Of a stretch of DNA of 35,499 nucleotides, positions 11,892 to 23,983 are shown piece after piece. Origin of the DNA: a virus (taxonomy: Duplodnaviria; Caudoviricetes); IMG/VR virus record IMGVR_UViG_3300011335_000224, positions 1 to 35,499 of that record; one strand, given 5' to 3'. Below the pieces are notes generated by a model. The model saw nothing but the letters and a program-made list of their open reading frames with translations, was not told the origin of the DNA and made no database searches. The position numbers and the translations under genes were made by a program. Numbering within the stretch: the stretch's first letter is position 1; each line of letters opens with the position of its first letter.

Positions 11892-11899
11892 TATATTTG
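11892..11899 (+). promoter_or_regulatory. Bacteroidota -7 promoter element TATATTTG
   Basis: Exact TANNTTTG match in an intergenic region; no clear -33 element. Confidence 0.6.
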
Positions 11900-11901
11900 G
11901 G

Positions 11902-12016
11902 GTACATAGTCGGGAAACCTATGTGCAAGATAAACTTTTTAATGCCTTAGAAAGGTTCGGAAGTTCTGCGAAAGCAAACTTGTTTCCCCCGAATCTTTTT
12001 AAGGTATATTTTTTTT
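11902..12016 (+). ncRNA. Structured leader/attenuator A (hairpin loop complementary to terminator bulge)
   Basis: Hairpin 11902-11926 with GGGAAAC in the loop; 18-bp stem 11943-11960/11989-12006 with GAAA-capped inner hairpin and GTTTCCC bulge; T8 tract directly before ATG 12017. Confidence 0.7.
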
Positions 12017-12586
12017 ATGGCAATAATTATTGAAAGGAAAAATTATTATCCTATTTGTTTCATTATAGGAGAAGATGGTACTTTATTAAAATCAAATGCA
12101 TTAGATGGTGCATTGTTTAATTATTCTGAATTACAACAATTACATGATGCAATTATTACCACATTAGATTACTATGAAAAAAGAAAATTCGTTGACGATG
12201 CTGAAATAGATGACTATAATGAAATACAACATTATTTAAGGACAAAAAATTTACAAAGCATACCAAGGCTTGAAGCATTTGCAGAATTGAATAGGCAATT
12301 TAATACTAATGTTTATTTAATGGTTGACCATAATACTGGATATTATAAAATAGGTAGGTCAAACAATGCTGCCAAAAGAGAAAAAACATTGCAATCAGAA
12401 AAGCCTACTATTGAAATGTTATATACATTCAAGGCAAGGTCTAAAGATGAAACATATTTTCATGAACTATTTAAGAAACAAAGAATAAGAGGAGAATGGT
12501 TTAATCTAAGTAAAGATGATATAGATACAATAGTATCATATTTTAAAAAATTAGATATAAATAGGCAAAGGAGGGAGCAATCATGA
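12017..12586 (+). CDS. T5orf172/MUG113 (GIY-YIG-like) domain protein
   Basis: VYLM...YYKIGRS...R.K.LQ...E..FH..F...RIRGEWF. Confidence 0.75.
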   Translation: MAIIIERKNYYPICFIIGEDGTLLKSNALDGALFNYSELQQLHDAIITTLDYYEKRKFVDDAEIDDYNEIQHYLRTKNLQSIPRLEAFAELNRQFNTNVYLMVDHNTGYYKIGRSNNAAKREKTLQSEKPTIEMLYTFKARSKDETYFHELFKKQRIRGEWFNLSKDDIDTIVSYFKKLDINRQRREQS

Positions 12587-15435: not shown

Positions 15436-15722
15436 CCCAAGAAGATGAAAAGTTCATTCAGGATAATATATACAACTTTGAATGCGTTAAGGTTGGTTTT
15501 ATGAAGAACCTTCCTTTGCATATCTTGGTCGGTTATGAACAGATTTACAGAAGGTATTTAGACAGTGGGTTTATCCTTACCTCTTGGTGTTCCAATTGTG
15601 TTGCCGACATGATGAAACGATTGAGTAATTACTGGGATTCATACCAAGCAAATAAATCAGTTGAGCAACCTATCCAACAAGCACCAAAGAAAAAAGGTAG
15701 ACCATTTAAAAACAAGCAATGA
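15432..15722 (+). CDS. Hypothetical protein with CxxC and basic tail
   Basis: WCSNC; C-terminal KKKGRP (AT-hook-like); ATGA-coupled. Confidence 0.6.
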   Translation: MTQEDEKFIQDNIYNFECVKVGFMKNLPLHILVGYEQIYRRYLDSGFILTSWCSNCVADMMKRLSNYWDSYQANKSVEQPIQQAPKKKGRPFKNKQ

Positions 15723-16243
15723 TATCACACGAGGAATTTTTACAGACAGAACTTGAAATGGGTATCAATGGAGATAACCTTAACTTCATTAATCTTGCCA
15801 ATGCAACAGTAAACCAACTATCAATATCTTATCATTCAGTACTTGACTATGGTGCAGGAATAGGTGTTTACTCAGATGCCTTTCATAGATCAGGCAAAGA
15901 AACTTACACCTTTGAACTTTGGAAACCACATCGGGAATATATAAAGATTAAGTTCCCACATTTAACCATTGTTAAACAACCAATTACAACAGACCTGCTT
16001 TGTTGGATTGAGGTTGCTGAACATATGAAGGATGAGGAAATAGATATCTTATTTGAAAAGATTAAACCAAAATACATCCTATTTTCATCTACACCACACA
16101 AGACTGAGAATGATGAAGCCTGGGGTCATATAAATATCAAGGACCATCAAGGATGGATTGATACTATGCAAAAGCATAAGTTCACATTCATTCAGAATCT
16201 ATCATACCCAACTCCGTGGGCAAAACTATTCCAATGCGTATAA
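15719..16243 (+). CDS. Class I SAM-dependent methyltransferase
   Basis: VLDYGAGIG motif I; DLLCWIEVAEH; GHIN. Confidence 0.8.
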   Translation: MISHEEFLQTELEMGINGDNLNFINLANATVNQLSISYHSVLDYGAGIGVYSDAFHRSGKETYTFELWKPHREYIKIKFPHLTIVKQPITTDLLCWIEVAEHMKDEEIDILFEKIKPKYILFSSTPHKTENDEAWGHINIKDHQGWIDTMQKHKFTFIQNLSYPTPWAKLFQCV

Positions 16244-17238
16244 TAGCAATCGGACAAAGAAATTCAGGGGTATCTTTCCATAGGTTATTTAACCCAATTA
16301 TCTATCTTGAGAAGGACTTTGCAATGATGACGGATACCATCACTGAGGAAGAACTGGAGAAAGGATATGACATTATGTTTATCAATAGGTATGTAGCAGG
16401 AGTTGAAGTTGATGAGATTATAAGACTGCGTGAGAAGTACGGATTTAAGTTGGTAGTGGATATTGATGATTACTGGAATCTTGACCCTTGGCATATCTTG
16501 TACGGCAAATATCCGTACAAAAAAGTGATAGACCACATCAAGATAGCAGACTTGGTAATCTGCTCAAACAACGATTTGGCAACTTATGTGGATGACCTTA
16601 ATCCAAATTGGATAGTAATACCTAATGCCTTACCTTACGGAGAGGACCAATTTACAGATATCAAAACGGAATCAGAAAAGGTCCGCTTTGTTTATGCAGG
16701 TTCAATAACTCACGGCAAGGATATTGCACTACTAAAGAATCCAATGAAACGGGTGTCATCAGATGTTATTACAAAGAATAACTCAAGGTTCATCCTTTGC
16801 GGTTATTCTCAAGATAAGCAAGTAGCAAACGAATGGGGCAGAATGATTAATGATTACCTTTGCGGTTTCAAGGTTGATGGTTACATCCGTGAGGCATTAC
16901 CCGTTGATGAGTATATGAACTTTTACAATGAAGCTGATGTTTGCCTTGTGCCTTTGGTAGATTCCAAGTTCAACTCAATGAAATCTAATCTTAAAGTATT
17001 GGAGGCAGCAACTAAGAATGCACCAGTAATTGCATCAAATGTAAAACCTTATTCTGATTGCCCATATATAATACCAATAACACATCAGGGCGGTTGGTTT
17101 GAAAACATTAAAAAAGTTGTCAAAGATGCTATTTATAGAGAGGAGATGGGCATTGCGAATGGTGAATGGTGTAGGGAGAACTTTGACCTTAAAAAAGTAA
17201 ACAAATTAAGAAGTCAAGTTTTTGAATCATATATTTAA
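16216..17238 (+). CDS. GT-B fold glycosyltransferase (GT4-like)
   Basis: VVDIDD, VIPNA, ADVCLVPL..SKFN..KSNLKVLEA....PVIAS; the real start may be ATG 16234. Confidence 0.85.
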   Translation: MGKTIPMRIIAIGQRNSGVSFHRLFNPIIYLEKDFAMMTDTITEEELEKGYDIMFINRYVAGVEVDEIIRLREKYGFKLVVDIDDYWNLDPWHILYGKYPYKKVIDHIKIADLVICSNNDLATYVDDLNPNWIVIPNALPYGEDQFTDIKTESEKVRFVYAGSITHGKDIALLKNPMKRVSSDVITKNNSRFILCGYSQDKQVANEWGRMINDYLCGFKVDGYIREALPVDEYMNFYNEADVCLVPLVDSKFNSMKSNLKVLEAATKNAPVIASNVKPYSDCPYIIPITHQGGWFENIKKVVKDAIYREEMGIANGEWCRENFDLKKVNKLRSQVFESYI

Positions 17239-17250
17239 AACATAAGTCAA

Positions 17251-17493
17251 ATGAGAGCAGAGTTACATTTTAACCTTGATGATTACGATGATAAAATTGA
17301 GCATCTTAAATGTGTTCAAGCATCAGACTTATGTAGTGCAGTTTGGGAGTTTTTAAATAACACAAGAGAAACTTTAACAGAGAATGCAGTAAAACAGAAC
17401 ATTGATGTAGATGATGCAATCGTCTTGGTTTACAGAACGTTTTGGGAGATACTGGAAGAAAGGAATATTAATATAGATAAACTCGTTCAATGA
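17251..17493 (+). CDS. Hypothetical protein
   Basis: 80 aa ORF. Confidence 0.6.
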   Translation: MRAELHFNLDDYDDKIEHLKCVQASDLCSAVWEFLNNTRETLTENAVKQNIDVDDAIVLVYRTFWEILEERNINIDKLVQ

Positions 17494-17609
17494 AGTACAA
17501 ACCTAAATGGGTAACGTGTAAGAACTGTCATAAGAAGTATACTATTACAATCATCAAGTCAAAGGCGAAAGAAAGCAAGTGCGGTCATTGTGGAACAATA
17601 AATAAATAA
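17490..17609 (+). CDS. Com-like zinc-ribbon protein (39 aa, not in ORF track)
   Basis: MKYKPKWVTCKNCHKKYTITIIKSKAKESKCGHCGTINK; ATGA-coupled upstream; ends 1 nt before the GT-A gene. Confidence 0.65.
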   Translation: MKYKPKWVTCKNCHKKYTITIIKSKAKESKCGHCGTINK

Positions 17610-17610
17610 A

Positions 17611-18393
17611 ATGGACAAAGTATTAATCGCAATGGCGGTGCATGATACCGATGAAAACCAAAGGACAGAATTAACCGAAAGGGTACTTAATAGTCTATAC
17701 AATCAAGATATCTTTACGGACCATGATTTTTGGGTAGTAGATAATAACTCTTGTCAAGCAACAAAGGACATCCTTAAATTATGGGCAGAGGATGGGTACA
17801 TTAACCTTATCACAAATGAGCAGAATATAGGTACTGCGGAGGCGGTAAACCTTGCTTGGAAGCATAGAACAATTGGTCAACATTGTATCAAGATGGATAA
17901 CGATGTTACAATCAATTACCTTGACTGGGTAAAGGAAATGGCAGAAGCAATCCAAAGAGAAGCAAGAATAGGAATAGTAGGTTTAAAGCGGAAAGATTGT
18001 TGGGAAGAACCGAATCACGCTTTACCAGATTGGAGAAGTGAATTAATTATGCTTCCTCACATGGCAGGTCAAAGGTGGATGATAGTTGAAAAGTGCCATC
18101 ACATTATCGGCACTTGCCAAATGTACTCATCAGCATTGTTGGATAAAATTGGGTATCTTTACCAGCCTTCTCTCTATGGTTATGATGATGTTTTGGCATC
18201 TCATCGGTCAACAGTTGCAGGGATGTGGAATGTGTTTTTACCTCATATTGAGATTGACCACATTGACCCAGGAGAAACAACCTATCAATCTTGGAAGGAG
18301 AAACATAGTAGCGAAGTAACCCAACAAGTCATAAAGATTACTCATCAATATTATCAAGGAACAAGACCAATATATTATAATCCGTACCAATGA
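17611..18393 (+). CDS. GT-A fold glycosyltransferase (GT2-like)
   Basis: VVDNNS, NIGTAEAVN, DND (DxD motif), YGYDD. Confidence 0.85.
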   Translation: MDKVLIAMAVHDTDENQRTELTERVLNSLYNQDIFTDHDFWVVDNNSCQATKDILKLWAEDGYINLITNEQNIGTAEAVNLAWKHRTIGQHCIKMDNDVTINYLDWVKEMAEAIQREARIGIVGLKRKDCWEEPNHALPDWRSELIMLPHMAGQRWMIVEKCHHIIGTCQMYSSALLDKIGYLYQPSLYGYDDVLASHRSTVAGMWNVFLPHIEIDHIDPGETTYQSWKEKHSSEVTQQVIKITHQYYQGTRPIYYNPYQ

Positions 18394-19013
18394 AAATAAT
18401 TGTTTCACTTGATAATCCGAATCACCCAGGGTGGTTAAAATTAGAGGAATCACTCAAACGGCACGGATGGGAATATGTAACCATTGTCAAAGAGTGGAAA
18501 GGATTTGGAACTAAGATAATCGGATTGTATGAGCATCTTGTTAATGCTTATGATGATGATTTCATCTATCTTGATGCGTATGATAATTACTGCATTGCAC
18601 CTCCAGATGAGTTTAATTACAAACATAGAGGCGGTAGTGGTTTAATCATAAGTTCAGAAAAAGGATGTTACCCCGATTCAAATAATAGGGGAAAGTTCCC
18701 AACAGTACCTCACGAATGGAAGTACCTAAACTCAGGGCAGATATACGGCAGAAGGGAGGACTTTATGAAGTTGTTTGAACAGAACCCAGTGAAGTTTGAA
18801 GATGATGACCAAAGGTGGTACACCGACCGCTACCTTGAAAGGCGGTCAAGCATCAGTCTTGATTACTGCAATATCTTCCAATCCGTTGCATTTGAGGTTG
18901 AAGGTGACTTTACTTTGACCTACAACAGATTATATAATAATAAAACCCATACCTTCCCGATGTTTATACACGGCAACGGCAAAACGGATATGACTAAATT
19001 TTATCAACTATGA
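18390..19013 (+). CDS. PLOD/LH3-type glycosyltransferase domain protein
   Basis: DAYD, SEKGCYP, YLNSG, DDQ, IFQ and PMFIHGNG, in the order found in the procollagen lysyl-hydroxylase GT domain. Confidence 0.75.
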   Translation: MKIIVSLDNPNHPGWLKLEESLKRHGWEYVTIVKEWKGFGTKIIGLYEHLVNAYDDDFIYLDAYDNYCIAPPDEFNYKHRGGSGLIISSEKGCYPDSNNRGKFPTVPHEWKYLNSGQIYGRREDFMKLFEQNPVKFEDDDQRWYTDRYLERRSSISLDYCNIFQSVAFEVEGDFTLTYNRLYNNKTHTFPMFIHGNGKTDMTKFYQL

Positions 19014-19681
19014 TGGAAGCATTAGTGAAAGAATATACTGACAAGGTAAATGCTGACAAAGAACTCAAAGCATATCGGGATTGGATAGAAGCAAACGCTT
19101 TCGGGTTCGGAGAAAGATGCTTCCTTTGGATGTGGAATGAGATAGTAGGAAAGATGCCTGATGAGTTTACCTTTATGGAAATAGGAGTTTTCAGAGGGCA
19201 GATACTTGGACTTGTTAGTCTACTCGCAGAACGGCATGGTAAAAAGGTTAGGCGAATAGGAATAACGCCTCTTGACACTTCCGATGGGCATTGGGAATCT
19301 GACTATGAAGCAGACATAATAAGACTGCATGATGTGTTTAATATCAAAAATGATTACGAATTAATCCGTTTGGATTCAACCAACCCAAACGCAGTTAAGT
19401 TGGCAGGACAAAATCCTCCTGATGTACTTTACATTGATGGAGGACATACCTACGAAGTGGTTAAGTCAGACCTTACCAATTACCTTCCTATTCTCAAAGT
19501 AGGTGGCACACTGGTAATAGATGACTGCAACAATGCTATCCCGATGCCTTGGGGTTACTTTCAAGGTATTCAATCGGTATCACTTGCGGTTGATGAAGTC
19601 CTACCAAGAGAAGGAAGCACAGAATATTGGAAGCATGAGTTGAACTTGGTACATAACAGAGTATTAACTAAACTAAAATAA
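19010..19681 (+). CDS. SAM-dependent methyltransferase (Methyltransf_24-like)
   Basis: EIGVFRGQ; DVLYIDGGHTYEVVKSD...LKVGGTLVIDD. Confidence 0.85.
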   Translation: MMEALVKEYTDKVNADKELKAYRDWIEANAFGFGERCFLWMWNEIVGKMPDEFTFMEIGVFRGQILGLVSLLAERHGKKVRRIGITPLDTSDGHWESDYEADIIRLHDVFNIKNDYELIRLDSTNPNAVKLAGQNPPDVLYIDGGHTYEVVKSDLTNYLPILKVGGTLVIDDCNNAIPMPWGYFQGIQSVSLAVDEVLPREGSTEYWKHELNLVHNRVLTKLK

Positions 19682-20199
19682 TGAATCCTATTAAAGTTAA
19701 AATCAGCGAAGTAAAGTCTAACCCGAACAATCCAAGAATCATCAAGGATGATAAGTTCCAAAAGTTAGTCAAGTCTATTAAAGAGTTCCCTGAGATGCTA
19801 AACATCAGACCTATTGTGGTCAATGCTGATATGGTTGTACTCGGTGGCAATATGCGACTTAAGGCTTGTAAGGAAGCAGGCATTAAAGAGGTAGCAATCA
19901 TTAAAGCAGATGAACTGACTGATGAACAACAGAAGCAGTTTATCATTAAAGATAATGTTGGGTTCGGTGAATGGGATTGGGAGGACCTTGCAAACAACTG
20001 GGATGCTGAACAGTTAACAGATTGGGGGTTGGATATACCCGATTTTAAACATATTGAATCAGAGGACAGAGAAGATTTATCTGATAAGATTAAATCTGAA
20101 TTCAGAATAGAAGTTATCTGCAAAGATGAAACTGAGCAAGAACAGACATATAACAAACTCATTGAACAAAATTACGAATGCCGACTTTTAACATTATAA
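19681..20199 (+). CDS. ParB/sulfiredoxin-like N-terminal domain protein
   Basis: NPNNPR...LVKSIKEF...RPIVV...VLGGNMRLKAC...DN. Confidence 0.85.
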   Translation: MNPIKVKISEVKSNPNNPRIIKDDKFQKLVKSIKEFPEMLNIRPIVVNADMVVLGGNMRLKACKEAGIKEVAIIKADELTDEQQKQFIIKDNVGFGEWDWEDLANNWDAEQLTDWGLDIPDFKHIESEDREDLSDKIKSEFRIEVICKDETEQEQTYNKLIEQNYECRLLTL

Positions 20200-21254
20200 G
20201 AGAATCAAAACCAGCAAAAACCTTCAGGGTTGCATCAGTTATAGGTAAATTTGATTTATCTTCTGAGCATATAGTTGAGCAATTTACTGGGGATATTAAT
20301 ATACCAAATGAATGGCAAATAGGTCTGATAGTAGGCAAGTCAGGAACTGGTAAGACAACAATATCAAAAGAGTTATTCCCTGAATCTTATATTACAAATT
20401 TTGAATATAAGGAATCTTCTATACTTGATGATATGCCTAAGAATAAAAGTGTTGAAGAAATTACTTCAGCATTTAACTCAGTCGGTTTTTCAAGTCCTCC
20501 ATCTTGGTTAAAACCATATTCAGCATTAAGCAATGGCCAGAAAATGCGTGTTGATTTAGCAAACGCAATGCTATCAGATAATGAAATGTTTGTTTTTGAT
20601 GAGTTCACAAGTGTAGTTGATAGAAATGTGGCACAGATAGGTTCTTTTGCTATGCAGAAGGCAATAAGGAAAACAGATAAGAAGTTTATTGCAGTAACTT
20701 GTCATTTTGATGTAGAAGATTGGCTATTACCTGACTGGGTTTTTGATACAGATACTATGACCTTTCGCACTTGCGAGGGTCAAAAAAAAAATAGACCAGA
20801 AATTAAATTTGAGATATTCAGTACAAACGATAAGACAATATGGAAAATGTTTGCTAAACACCACTATTTAAGTCATACGCATCATGATGCTGCTTCTGTT
20901 TATGTAGCAGCAATTAATAATCAAATTGCAGGATTTTTAAGTGTTTTACATTTTCCTAATGCAGTACATAAAAATTTTAAAAAAGTGCATCGTTTAGTAA
21001 TATTACCCGATTATCAAGGAGCAGGATTTGGAGTAAAATTTTTAACAGAAATAGCAAAAAAATATAGAGAAGATAAGTACATATTTGGTATAACAACATC
21101 TTCGCCAAGTTTAATTTATAGTTTGAAAAAAAAGTTAGAATGGGTATGTATTCACTTCGGAAAGGTAACACCGCATAAAGGTTTATCGCAACTTAAAAAA
21201 ACTGCATCAACTAATAGATTAGTAGCATCATTTATGATAAAAACATCGGAATAA
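20178..21254 (+). CDS. ABC-family ATPase fused to GNAT acetyltransferase
   Basis: Walker A GKSGTGKT, signature LSNGQ, Walker B FVFDEF, H-loop TCH; C-terminal HHYL and RLVILPDYQGAGFG acetyl-CoA motif. Confidence 0.85.
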   Translation: MPTFNIIRESKPAKTFRVASVIGKFDLSSEHIVEQFTGDINIPNEWQIGLIVGKSGTGKTTISKELFPESYITNFEYKESSILDDMPKNKSVEEITSAFNSVGFSSPPSWLKPYSALSNGQKMRVDLANAMLSDNEMFVFDEFTSVVDRNVAQIGSFAMQKAIRKTDKKFIAVTCHFDVEDWLLPDWVFDTDTMTFRTCEGQKKNRPEIKFEIFSTNDKTIWKMFAKHHYLSHTHHDAASVYVAAINNQIAGFLSVLHFPNAVHKNFKKVHRLVILPDYQGAGFGVKFLTEIAKKYREDKYIFGITTSSPSLIYSLKKKLEWVCIHFGKVTPHKGLSQLKKTASTNRLVASFMIKTSE

Positions 21255-21263: not shown

Positions 21264-21642
21264 GGCAAAGCAGATAAAGCAAGAACATGGCGGTAGTTTA
21301 ACCCGACCTGACAAGGGTGAAACAATGAACCCAAACGGCAGACCGAGGAAGTATGTTTCCTTACTCAAAGAGCAGGGATACAAACTGGCAGAGGTTAATG
21401 ACTGCATTCAAGCAATTATGTCAATGGATATGCAGGAACTCAAAGCGGTATGGGATAACCCGAAGGCAACAGTCTTGGAGAAAACAATTGCAGGTGCATT
21501 GAGGAAGTCATTGGAGAAGGGCAGCCTTTATTCAATTGATACCTTACTTACCAGAGTATATGGCAAACCGAAGGAAACTGCACATATTACAAATGATGGA
21601 AAGATTGAGGTGGTATTTACGAAGGGTAAAACGATTCTATGA
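21262..21642 (+). CDS. terS: Terminase small subunit
   Basis: KGETMNPNGRPR motif, RVYGKP; ATGA-coupled to terL. Confidence 0.75.
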   Translation: MAKQIKQEHGGSLTRPDKGETMNPNGRPRKYVSLLKEQGYKLAEVNDCIQAIMSMDMQELKAVWDNPKATVLEKTIAGALRKSLEKGSLYSIDTLLTRVYGKPKETAHITNDGKIEVVFTKGKTIL

Positions 21643-22796
21643 TTATTGAACTACCTGAACCACATACAAATCAAATCGGTATCATTGAATCAGATGCAAG
21701 GTTCAGAGTGGTCATGTGCGGAAGGAGGTTTGGCAAGTCAGAACTAAGTCAGGTAGAAATAATTAAGAATGCTATTGTAGGGCAATCCGTTGCCTATATT
21801 ACCCCTACTTATAACCTTGCAAAGACTTTCTTTGATAAACTTGCTAAAGCGGTTCCTTTTGCCTCTAATCGGTCAGATTTGACTATTGAGTTCCCGAATG
21901 GAGGTTCGGTTCAGTTTTTTACTGGGGAGAGGTTAGATAACCTGCGAGGAAGGAAGTTCCACCTGGTTGTGGTAGATGAAGCAAGTTTCATCCCTGACCT
22001 TGAAGGCGGTTGGTTAAATTCAATCAGACCTACCCTAACGGATTACAAGGGGAAGGCATTGTTCTTGTCTACCCCAAAGGGTAAAAACTACTTTTATTCT
22101 CTTTTTATGAAAGGAAACGGGGGTGAGGAAGATTGGGCATCCTTTAAGTTCAGCACCTATGATAACCCGTACATAGACAAATCTGAGGTAGATTCTGCAA
22201 GGATGCAACTACCTGAGGTGGTCTTTGAGCAGGAATATATGGCAAACCCTGCTGAGAATGCTGCCAACCCATTCGGTTCTGCATTTATAAGGCAGTGCAT
22301 TTACCCGATGTCTATTAACAAAATCGCTTGTTATGGTATTGACCTTGCAAAGTCGGTGGACTTTACAGTTATCACTGGATTAGATAAGAATGGTTCTGTA
22401 TGCCATTTTGAACGCTTCCAAAGGGATTGGAGGCAAACTAAGGAATATATCATCAATTTGCCTAAAGCACCAATCCTTATGGATTCTACTGGGGTAGGTG
22501 ACCCTATCTTTGAGGATATGCAAAGGGAGGGGTTAGATGTTCAAGGGTATAAGTTCAGTTCTACCTCAAAGCAGATGCTAATGGAGGGTCTTGCCTCTGC
22601 CATACACCAAAGGAAGATAACCTTCCCTCCAGGTCCTATTGTGGATGAACTTGAAATATTTGAGTATCAGTACACAAGTTACGGGGTAAAGTATTCAGCA
22701 CCCCAAGGATTCCATGATGACTGCGTGGTAAGTCTGTCCCTTGCTTGGCAACATCTTCAAAAGAATATGGGGAGTGGAAGGTATTCCTTTGCGTAA
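21639..22796 (+). CDS. terL: Terminase large subunit
   Basis: Walker A GRRFGKS, Walker B VVVDEA, STPKG, FEQEY, nuclease GIDLA and HDDCV. Confidence 0.95.
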   Translation: MIIELPEPHTNQIGIIESDARFRVVMCGRRFGKSELSQVEIIKNAIVGQSVAYITPTYNLAKTFFDKLAKAVPFASNRSDLTIEFPNGGSVQFFTGERLDNLRGRKFHLVVVDEASFIPDLEGGWLNSIRPTLTDYKGKALFLSTPKGKNYFYSLFMKGNGGEEDWASFKFSTYDNPYIDKSEVDSARMQLPEVVFEQEYMANPAENAANPFGSAFIRQCIYPMSINKIACYGIDLAKSVDFTVITGLDKNGSVCHFERFQRDWRQTKEYIINLPKAPILMDSTGVGDPIFEDMQREGLDVQGYKFSSTSKQMLMEGLASAIHQRKITFPPGPIVDELEIFEYQYTSYGVKYSAPQGFHDDCVVSLSLAWQHLQKNMGSGRYSFA

Positions 22797-22860: not shown

Positions 22861-22881
22861 TCGGGGGGAAGTCGGGGGGAA
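22861..22881 (+). repeat. Tandem repeat TCGGGGGGAA x2 (11-bp period)
   Basis: Exact copies at 22861-22870 and 22872-22881. Confidence 0.75.
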
Positions 22882-22934
22882 ACTACTTTTTTTAAAATAC
22901 TTTGCTAAAATAGTTAGCATTTATGAAAAATAGT

Positions 22935-22942
22935 TATATTTG
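22935..22942 (+). promoter_or_regulatory. Bacteroidota -7 promoter element TATATTTG
   Basis: Exact TANNTTTG match in an AT-rich intergenic context, directly before a hairpin. Confidence 0.65.
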
Positions 22943-22947
22943 CATTG

Positions 22948-23044
22948 TCAATCCGAATAATAGATGCAATATGATTCGGGTTTGATTTTAGCAAACCTGC
23001 TACGATTAGACCCATACTGTTGCATCCAGTGTGGGTTCTTTTTT
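22948..23044 (+). ncRNA. Structured leader/attenuator B (hairpin loop complementary to terminator loop)
   Basis: Hairpin 22948-22985 with loop GATGCAA; small hairpin 22989-23002; terminator stem 23009-23019/23027-23037 with loop TTGCATC, then CTTTTTT. Confidence 0.7.
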
Positions 23045-23050
23045 GCCCAT

Positions 23051-23262
23051 ACTTGATAAATGCAAGTAGTCGCCTACCTCTCAAAGTTCTGAATTCAAGG
23101 AGTTTAAATCTGTTAAATGAAAAGAAGGATGTAACTTTTTCCCTTTTCAGCCGACTAACCCGATTACCTATGTGACGGAGTAGATGGTCAGTAGTTGTTT
23201 CCTATTGGGGGTAGGGGGCAACTTCTGTCCTGACCAACTTCCCTCATAACCTTGTTCGGGAG
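23051..23262 (+). ncRNA. Candidate multi-hairpin non-coding RNA
   Basis: No ORF of 60 aa or more; several helices, including a 14-bp G-U-rich stem 23193-23206/23210-23223 closed by GGTCAG/CTGACC. Confidence 0.45.
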
Positions 23263-23293
23263 TAGATAGATTATACACTTAACCACATTTAAA

Positions 23294-23305: not shown

Positions 23306-23983
23306 ATGACTTGGAATAATGTAACAGTATTTCAGTATCAGCAGATTAATGACATTTATGCTAATGCTAAGGACATGACCGACCTTGATTTATCGGTTAA
23401 GGTTGCATCTATTCTCAAGAACCTTACTGAGCATCAGATTGATTCTTTACCAGTTAAAGAACTTGGTCCATTGTTGGAAACTATATCTTTTGTTCATCAA
23501 GAAATCCAACCACAAGCAGTAGACTTCATTAAGGTAAATGGTAGGGTATACAAGTGTATTTACGATGTACGGAATATCCCTGCTGCGAGGTATATTGAAT
23601 CTAAGCACTTCAGTTCAGATGTAATGGGTAACCTTCACAAGATATTCGCTTGTATGGTTATACCTCAAAAAAAGACTTGGTTAGGTTGGAAGGATGATAA
23701 ATACGATGCGAGTAAGCATAGCGAATATGCTCAGGATATTCTTGAAGCACCAATAGTAAACGTACTTGGTTCGGTGGTTTTTTTTTATCAAGTTTACAGA
23801 CTTTGGATAAAGAATTCAAAGGATTATTTGGTGCAACAGATGATGGAGGGGGGAGTGACGGAGAAGAAAGCGGTAGAGGGATGGGAGGCTTTATGCAACA
23901 TTATGGATGGATTTATCAAACCAAGTTGGTTGCCGACTTTGAAGGCATCACACTTAACCAAGCATTTGACTTACCTACAATAA
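23306..23983 (+). CDS. Putative tail assembly chaperone (0-frame product)
   Basis: 225 aa; T9 slippery run followed by a long overlapping -1 frame. Confidence 0.6.
   Translation: MTWNNVTVFQYQQINDIYANAKDMTDLDLSVKVASILKNLTEHQIDSLPVKELGPLLETISFVHQEIQPQAVDFIKVNGRVYKCIYDVRNIPAARYIESKHFSSDVMGNLHKIFACMVIPQKKTWLGWKDDKYDASKHSEYAQDILEAPIVNVLGSVVFFYQVYRLWIKNSKDYLVQQMMEGGVTEKKAVEGWEALCNIMDGFIKPSWLPTLKASHLTKHLTYLQ

Follow-up and report, generated by a model that had tools for sequence, protein, structure and literature searches.

A matched-loop RNA element of Bacteroidota-type phages, probably an attenuator, precedes long structured non-coding RNAs

We analysed a window of 35,499 bases, which is a whole virus record, and found that a ~97-base RNA element on its + strand (element B, 22947-23044) is one member of an RNA family conserved among uncultured phages of the Bacteroidota type. 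Element B is most probably an attenuator, in which the match between a hairpin loop and the terminator loop would lock an antiterminator rod. The first-pass annotation had described a kissing-loop attenuator at this place, and all the pieces of element B that it named are found where it put them; it overlooked the alternative rod fold and the long RNA downstream of the switch.

Element B consists of a hairpin (P1), a middle hairpin (P2) and a terminator (P3), all on the + strand. It is preceded by the promoter element TATATTTG (22935..22942) of the TAnnTTTG type, the -7 element of Bacteroidota promoters (PMC6847099), with a 4-nt gap to the first base. In F. johnsoniae the final G of the -7 element is position -5 (PMC6847099), so transcription is predicted to start at G22947, the first base of P1. 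P1 (22947..22986) carries loop L1 with the code GATGCAA (22963..22969), and its 3' strand GGGTTTGAT (22978-22986) is the switching strand. P2 (22989..23002) has a TAGCA/TGCTA stem of 5 bp, which covaries; its loop AACC can also pair with GGTT of P1, and in 44 out of 53 homologs the switching strand finds its best pairing partner in the P2 loop (six of these with a double change, GGTC/GACC). The linker and the 5' foot of the terminator, ATTAGACCC, follow at 23005..23013. The intrinsic-terminator-like hairpin P3, found by a consensus scan, extends with its T-run from 23009 to 23044: its stem arms (23009-23019/23027-23037) flank loop L3 (TTGCATC, 23020-23026), the complement of L1, and the T-run (23039-23044) ends it. 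The bases at 23045..23057 would be transcribed upon read-through only; they include GCCCATAC, able to pair with the terminator 3' arm in fold predictions, and TTGAT, a weak pairing partner of the 5' end of the element.

The region of element B folds with a z-score of -4.7, and none of 200 shuffled sequences is equally stable. A descriptor of promoter, hairpin, terminator and loop match, composed after B had been seen, matches B alone in the window and nothing in 150 dinucleotide shuffles; the descriptor misses element A (see below), because there the partner sequence is placed in an inner loop. The first-pass annotation had judged two instances, each behind the same promoter octamer and each with its own code, hard to ascribe to chance. 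The octamer by itself is at chance level (five seen in the window versus 3.7 expected, a number that 31 out of 100 shuffles reach); what holds is the spacing, as the gap between the end of TAnnTT(T/C)G and the first base is exactly 4 nt in all 53 distinct homologs. A conserved short reading frame over the switch, a feature of leader-peptide attenuators, was not found: the 30-aa frame of the window begins inside the variable loop code, and other ATGs are present only in a minority of the rows of alignment A1.

We consider covariation among the sequences to be the decisive evidence that element B is real. Homologs were gathered via searches with terL and neighbor genes, plus DNA patterns, and the loop match was defined by the longest complementary stretch that the two regions share. 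The match between L1 and L3 is perfectly Watson-Crick over 6-8 nt in 56 out of 56 distinct copies, which carry 22 codes; since each of these separate codes is perfectly matched, a single inherited event is hard to credit. Across 39 aligned distinct sequences, pairing in the loop-loop helix amounts to 97.4%, with both-side changes in all seven pairs, bearing out the idea of a matched-loop promoter-hairpin-terminator RNA with many codes. For P1, 96.4% of the cells are paired, with both-side changes at two out of 15 pairs; nine pairs never vary, and the sequence of the lower stem is invariant. For P3, 97.6% of the cells are paired in the homologs. The covariation score of the whole structure is attained by none of 500 shuffles (the shuffle ignores kinship), and slid controls are 30-40% paired. 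The first-pass annotation had extended the loop pairing to 9 bp, which holds in part: the eighth pair is kept in 34 out of the 37 rows with letters, and the ninth in only 18 out of 38.

Our counts give no support to the idea of the first-pass annotation that the codes are selected orthogonal barcodes. Among 47 cores there are 22 loop codes versus 24 variants of the middle hairpin, the codes cluster around one consensus, and in 70 out of 306 ordered code pairs no more than one position fails to pair (in the other 236 two or more fail, which still leaves some room for the idea). Moreover, no separate longer complementary partner RNA was found in six genomes, where the longest antisense match is 10-12 nt and has no shared place. 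An 11-nt complement of L1 near 23403-23413 was rejected as a partner and ascribed to chance: it is coding sequence, and is kept in a relative with another code. A TAnnTT(T/C)G promoter (the only type searched) is absent from the opposite strand within 260 nt in 52 out of 53 homologs.

The window has all its long genes on the + strand, among them genes for an endolysin, a replication-initiator-like protein, the terminase large subunit (terL, 21639..22796; phrog_2, E = 1.4e-41) and a portal protein; no integrase was recognised among the 52 proteins scanned, and no tRNA or tmRNA was found in the window. Element B sits in the 509-nt gap between terL and a gene encoding a protein of 225 a.a. (23306..23983, +; function not assigned), which is the first gene after the cassette and opens a run of structural genes. 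Element B follows terL in 35-kb phages and is found among unrelated small genes in larger phages, where it is single per contig (five out of five tested). Out of 80 terL loci, 23 have B, all within the 31 closest, and none of the 49 more distant loci has it. Of the eight close loci that lack it, two are cut short, and in the other six the next gene starts 29-66 nt after terL. The cassette (element B plus the long RNA) is therefore optional. A replication origin at the cassette was considered and rejected, as the GC skew is positive throughout, with no switch, and the cassette is optional.

Neither 50,697 phage records nor 72,556 plasmids contained a match to element B. A genome scan (five out of 64 parts; 120 loci, the last 40 of them short) gave no credible copy by the model, and a metagenome scan (eight out of 64 parts) gave real copies at eight out of 119 loci. 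Because no cultured phage, plasmid or scanned genome matched, it is the promoter type that points to Bacteroidota as the host. No Rfam family matches the window at its gathering score, and around B there are only chance-level matches (E up to 10); a match to the trpB motif was rejected (31.8 bits versus a cut-off of 59), and 12 homolog loci gave tRNAs only. No published description of element B was found in the literature covered, which leaves out most subscription papers.

Several other features of these genomes were observed. Genes for a methyltransferase, a glycosyltransferase, a 2OG-Fe(II) oxygenase, and ParB-like and ABC-ATPase/acetyltransferase-like proteins are clustered at 15719-21254 of the window, likely a DNA-modification module. 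Short tandem repeats are found at 22861-22883 and just past terL in the relatives (L001-L037). They differ among relatives (G-rich 11-mers in the window, other 8-9-mers elsewhere) and are possible protein-binding or packaging sites. The site between terL and element B is also a hot spot for small inserted genes (L001, L004, L007, L012, L014-L016, L020 and L024), several of which carry their own Bacteroidota promoter.

The key to a possible switch is that the 3' strand of P1 is complementary not only to its own 5' strand but also to the linker and terminator foot, which gives an alternative, rod-like fold. The rod has P2 as its apex and the loop match as its outer helix, and it excludes both P1 and the terminator. 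The two folds are close in energy: -33.0 kcal/mol for the terminator versus -32.1 kcal/mol for the rod in the window, and a gap of at most 5.5 kcal/mol in 52 out of 52 sequences. The rod-plus-P2 helix has 96.4% of its cells paired, and three positions of the linker, left unpaired by the terminator fold, can pair with the switching strand in 39 out of 39 rows each. Changes in the rod helix are one-sided only, with none both-sided, because the switching strand is nearly invariant. GGGTCTGA variants (four out of 39 rows) have one mismatched rod pair, and their rod is 4-5.5 kcal/mol weaker than the terminator fold. Within the rod the match between L1 and L3 would be an ordinary helix and need not be a true kissing complex. 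With the rod, the proposed attenuator has an explicit antiterminator.

Folding of truncated transcripts (an equilibrium calculation that contains no pseudoknots, polymerase or kinetics) gives the rod in 42 out of 45 sequences once the terminator foot is out, and in all 45 once L3 is out. For the full 97-nt transcript the rod is preferred in 20 and the terminator in 25, and when L1 is unmatched in silico the 97-mer adopts the terminator in 45 out of 45. For a 150-nt transcript the preference is for the rod in 35 sequences and for the terminator in 10. In 42 out of 53 homologs, the 5' end can be paired by the 35 nt past the T-run with an energy of -6 kcal/mol or lower, a value reached in 23% of 308 control windows and in 20% of the shuffled sequences; this capture of the 5' end is weak in the window itself (-3.2 kcal/mol).

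The second instance reported in the first-pass annotation, element A (11892..12016, +), covaries too. It is a promoter-hairpin-terminator leader of unrelated sequence that precedes replication genes. Its loop GGGAAAC (11912-11918) matches GTTTCCC (11982-11988), located in the inner loop of a long terminator-like stem. Among five relatives, one has the same code, another two carry GTGGAAC/GTTCCAC, and in the last two the leader has a different shape, with apical loops that match. As the loop match covaries in a sequence unrelated to B, the matched-loop logic recurs. The leader with the other fold replaces A at the same site in L448 and L449 (about 1800-1900). In the window, element A is separated from the replication-initiator-like gene by a gene with a T5orf172/MUG113 domain (12017-12586). 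A search with the gene following element A found no relative. In five out of five relatives the leader directly adjoins the initiator-sized gene. The possibility that the A code is a DNA-binding site, based on the TCGGGGGGAA repeats at 22861-22883, was rejected, as the code covaries and a relative with another code retains the repeat.

A conserved non-coding stretch follows element B in 56 out of 56 copies. It falls into five types of ~210-400 nt, which we labeled X (31 copies), Y (11), Z (eight), V (five) and W (one); examples are found in L129, L142, L151 and L128, about 100-480 nt after the element. The window has type X (23057..23268, +), which is predicted to be a product of read-through only; it terminates in a hairpin with a G-rich loop and arm, and no terminator-like site at its end was listed on the + strand between 23044 and 23380. 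Both-side changes are seen at 10 out of 48 consensus pairs of type X (15 sequences), at 14 out of 71 pairs of type Z (six sequences; mostly owing to one divergent row) and at 23 out of 88 pairs of type V (three sequences). There is no credible Rfam match for the long RNAs. When type X is searched alone, element B is upstream in 31 out of 32 copies (29 by pattern and two by eye, with one lost at a contig end; the 49 pattern matches included 16 unrelated and one incomplete), and when the Y/V hairpin is searched alone, B is upstream in 17 out of 20. Nine out of 22 loop codes are found with more than one long-RNA type, so code and cargo recombine freely, and the read-through product is predicted to be one of five interchangeable long structured RNAs. 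The long RNA could also have its own start past the T-run: a promoter-like octamer is present directly there in many close relatives, while the window and distant homologs have no good one.

For the function of the long RNA we have two leads: a cis-acting antiterminator RNA, suggested by the setting of the pLS20 attenuator described below, and a trans-acting accessory RNA. A partnership with an HNH nuclease was rejected, as an HNH-like gene (judged by eye) follows in only three out of 58 loci. In assembled contigs from eight RNA-library runs, four contigs from three studies cross the terminator into the long RNA. These contigs may be DNA (one run spans the region in a DNA-like way, and one contig extends 91 nt upstream of the promoter), and they do not count as evidence of transcription.

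The Y/V 5' hairpin is also found apart from element B in three unrelated contigs: L492 (601-622, -), L490 (601-622, +) and L496 (601-624, +). The L492 copy (read as L499) is located between terL and the portal gene, behind a sigma-70-like promoter. A downstream ATGAA in L490 and L492 could pair with TTCA of the hairpin, a possible pseudoknot. In L490, a provirus record, a direct repeat of ~17 bases flanks the Y-like RNA (about 520-990), as for an insertion. tRNA-like genes are sometimes inserted in the unit (L150, 2316-2423, -; L116 and L029, after the element). Their anticodon arm is enlarged by a long insertion (48 nt in L150); the L150 gene is scored as a tRNA by Rfam, and ARAGORN calls none.

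According to the fold predictions, element B would give either a stopped 97-base RNA or a long read-through RNA. During transcription P2 would zip outward, with the 3' strand of P1 taking the terminator foot; L1 would then pair with the terminator loop and lock the rod, so that the terminator could not close and the polymerase would continue, and downstream bases would then trap the freed 5' end. If the lock came late or were blocked, the terminator would prevail. We lean slightly towards a folding race as what settles the outcome, one decided at the pause on the T-run and adjusted either by how fast the polymerase moves or by an elongation factor of host or phage; such a race would set the amount or the timing of the long accessory RNA and of the genes that follow. 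Provided that the two loops still match, their code would be able to drift freely. The attenuator reading builds on the loop covariation, the rod-compatible linker (39 out of 39 rows), the nearly equal folds, the conserved long RNA in every copy, the flip of the fold when L1 is unmatched, the rarity of antisense promoters, and the precedents of the pLS20 and guanidine-IV systems. It is weakened by the lack of both-side changes in the rod, by the four rows with a mismatched and weaker rod, by the 10 out of 45 sequences that still prefer the terminator at 150 nt, by the weak capture of the 5' end in the window, and by the promoter-like octamers past the T-run in many homologs.

The same attenuator could instead be triggered in trans by its own 97-nt product, the exposed L3 of which would bind L1 of a new transcript and force termination, yielding negative feedback and code-specific interference between co-infecting phages. 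Both codes are placed exactly in apical loops of 6-8 nt, an unmatched L1 leads to the terminator fold in every sequence, and, as the searches gave no separate antisense gene or promoter, only the element itself could serve as an RNA partner; most ordered code pairs, with their two or more non-pairs, would also be kept apart. We nevertheless consider this trigger rather unlikely. The codes vary no more than P2 does and gather around one consensus, the 70 code pairs with at most one non-pair could cross-react, and the free 97-nt RNA is predicted to conceal both loops about half of the time. The YUNR motif, a feature of antisense-RNA recognition loops, is found in just two (L1) and three (L3) of the 22 codes. 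Taken further, this reading becomes an RNA-only circuit, which we put forward tentatively and with more doubt than belief: the terminator loop of the 97-nt RNA would be a key that silences transcripts of the same code, from its own or a co-infecting phage, and the circuit would gate a slot in which phages exchange at least five undescribed structured RNAs of 210-400 nt, a logic that Bacteroidota phages would have evolved repeatedly from unrelated sequences (A and B).

Three other explanations fit worse than the attenuator. Element B might be a stand-alone small RNA with an intramolecular kissing loop that would shield it or form a protein-binding decoy, with a terminator that always fires and a separate long RNA. 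The covariation is equally compatible with a kissing complex, the invariant lower P1 stem would suit this explanation, and so would the promoter-like octamers past the T-run in close relatives; it leaves unexplained the rod-compatible linker, the downstream complement of the 5' end and the coupling to long RNAs, and we consider it improbable, also because in guanidine-IV the growing terminator stem is described as sterically hindering the kiss (PMC11611296). A small-molecule riboswitch, in which a ligand stabilises the loop-loop pairing, would have the hairpin loop versus terminator loop topology of guanidine-IV, yet is very improbable: all seven loop pairs vary, where guanidine is described as needing highly conserved loop nucleotides (PMC7736828), no Rfam family matches, and downstream of B there are a non-coding RNA and unrelated genes, not a transporter. 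Hardly credible, finally, is a packaging RNA that multimerises through matched loops, although B follows terL in the 35-kb group and an unrelated phage has a Y/V-like RNA between its terL and portal genes. A packaging RNA of the phi29 pRNA type, which multimerises in this way, would be expected as a motor part in every member of the phage group. Element B is missing from six close relatives and from all of the more distant terL loci, and in larger phages it is not tied to terL but lies among unrelated small genes.

As the element is short and comes with 22 natural matched codes, the mechanism is directly testable with reporters and in vitro. If the attenuator reading is true, Bacteroidota phages use an uncatalogued class of attenuators for replication genes and accessory RNAs. 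Element B also flags long structured phage RNAs, five families of them and none with an Rfam match, and these may turn out to be the more important finding. Should the code act in trans, the element would amount to a small system for feedback or interference made of RNA only, and could supply parts for switches in Bacteroidota.

Short loop sequences could define specificity groups in B as in ColE1 RNA I/RNA II, the pT181 attenuator and the CI RNA of phage P4, where RNA-RNA pairing controls termination. Unlike in these systems, both matched loops of B are on one strand, in one short transcript, and no counter-transcript was found. A collection of candidate structured RNAs from IMG/VR, the same source data as for B, contains 8,495 candidates (29-151 nt), and for 1,241 of these a terminator is predicted (PMC10690425). 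The word 'kissing' is absent from the main text of that report, and B may be an unnamed candidate among its set.

Two known systems come closer. In the guanidine-IV riboswitch, a 5' hairpin loop pairs with the terminator loop region, which is proposed to hinder its closure during transcription (PMC11611296), and the motif (GGAM-1) precedes protein-coding genes such as mepA (PMC11611296, PMC7736828). The 5' hairpin loop of B is likewise complementary to the terminator loop; unlike in guanidine-IV, the loops of B vary, nothing implies a ligand, the alternative fold is a strand-exchange rod, and there is no Rfam match. The zipper attenuator cATT of pLS20 has an upstream hairpin, a middle hairpin and a terminator, a layout proven by experiment, and precedes an antitermination system made of protein plus RNA (PMC13401043). 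In B, as in cATT, the 3' strand of the upstream hairpin is complementary to the terminator's 5' stem and its loop, extending P2, and the terminator and antiterminator folds are similar in energy. The differences are in setting and proportions: cATT is located in a 456-nt leader of Gram-positive conjugation operons, before conAn1 (PMC13401043), and has a long, imperfect middle stem and a weak upstream hairpin, whereas B is 97 nt long, starts at +1, is found in a phage genome with no match in the plasmid collection, and has a P2 of 5 bp and a P1 of 15 paired columns. Its terminator loop, unlike that of cATT, is an exact pairing match to the upstream loop, by way of a code that changes freely, and its first product is a long non-coding RNA. 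B thus belongs to neither the pLS20 zipper attenuators nor the guanidine-IV riboswitches, but by analogy it likely works like the pLS20 zipper attenuator, with the loop match as its predicted lock.
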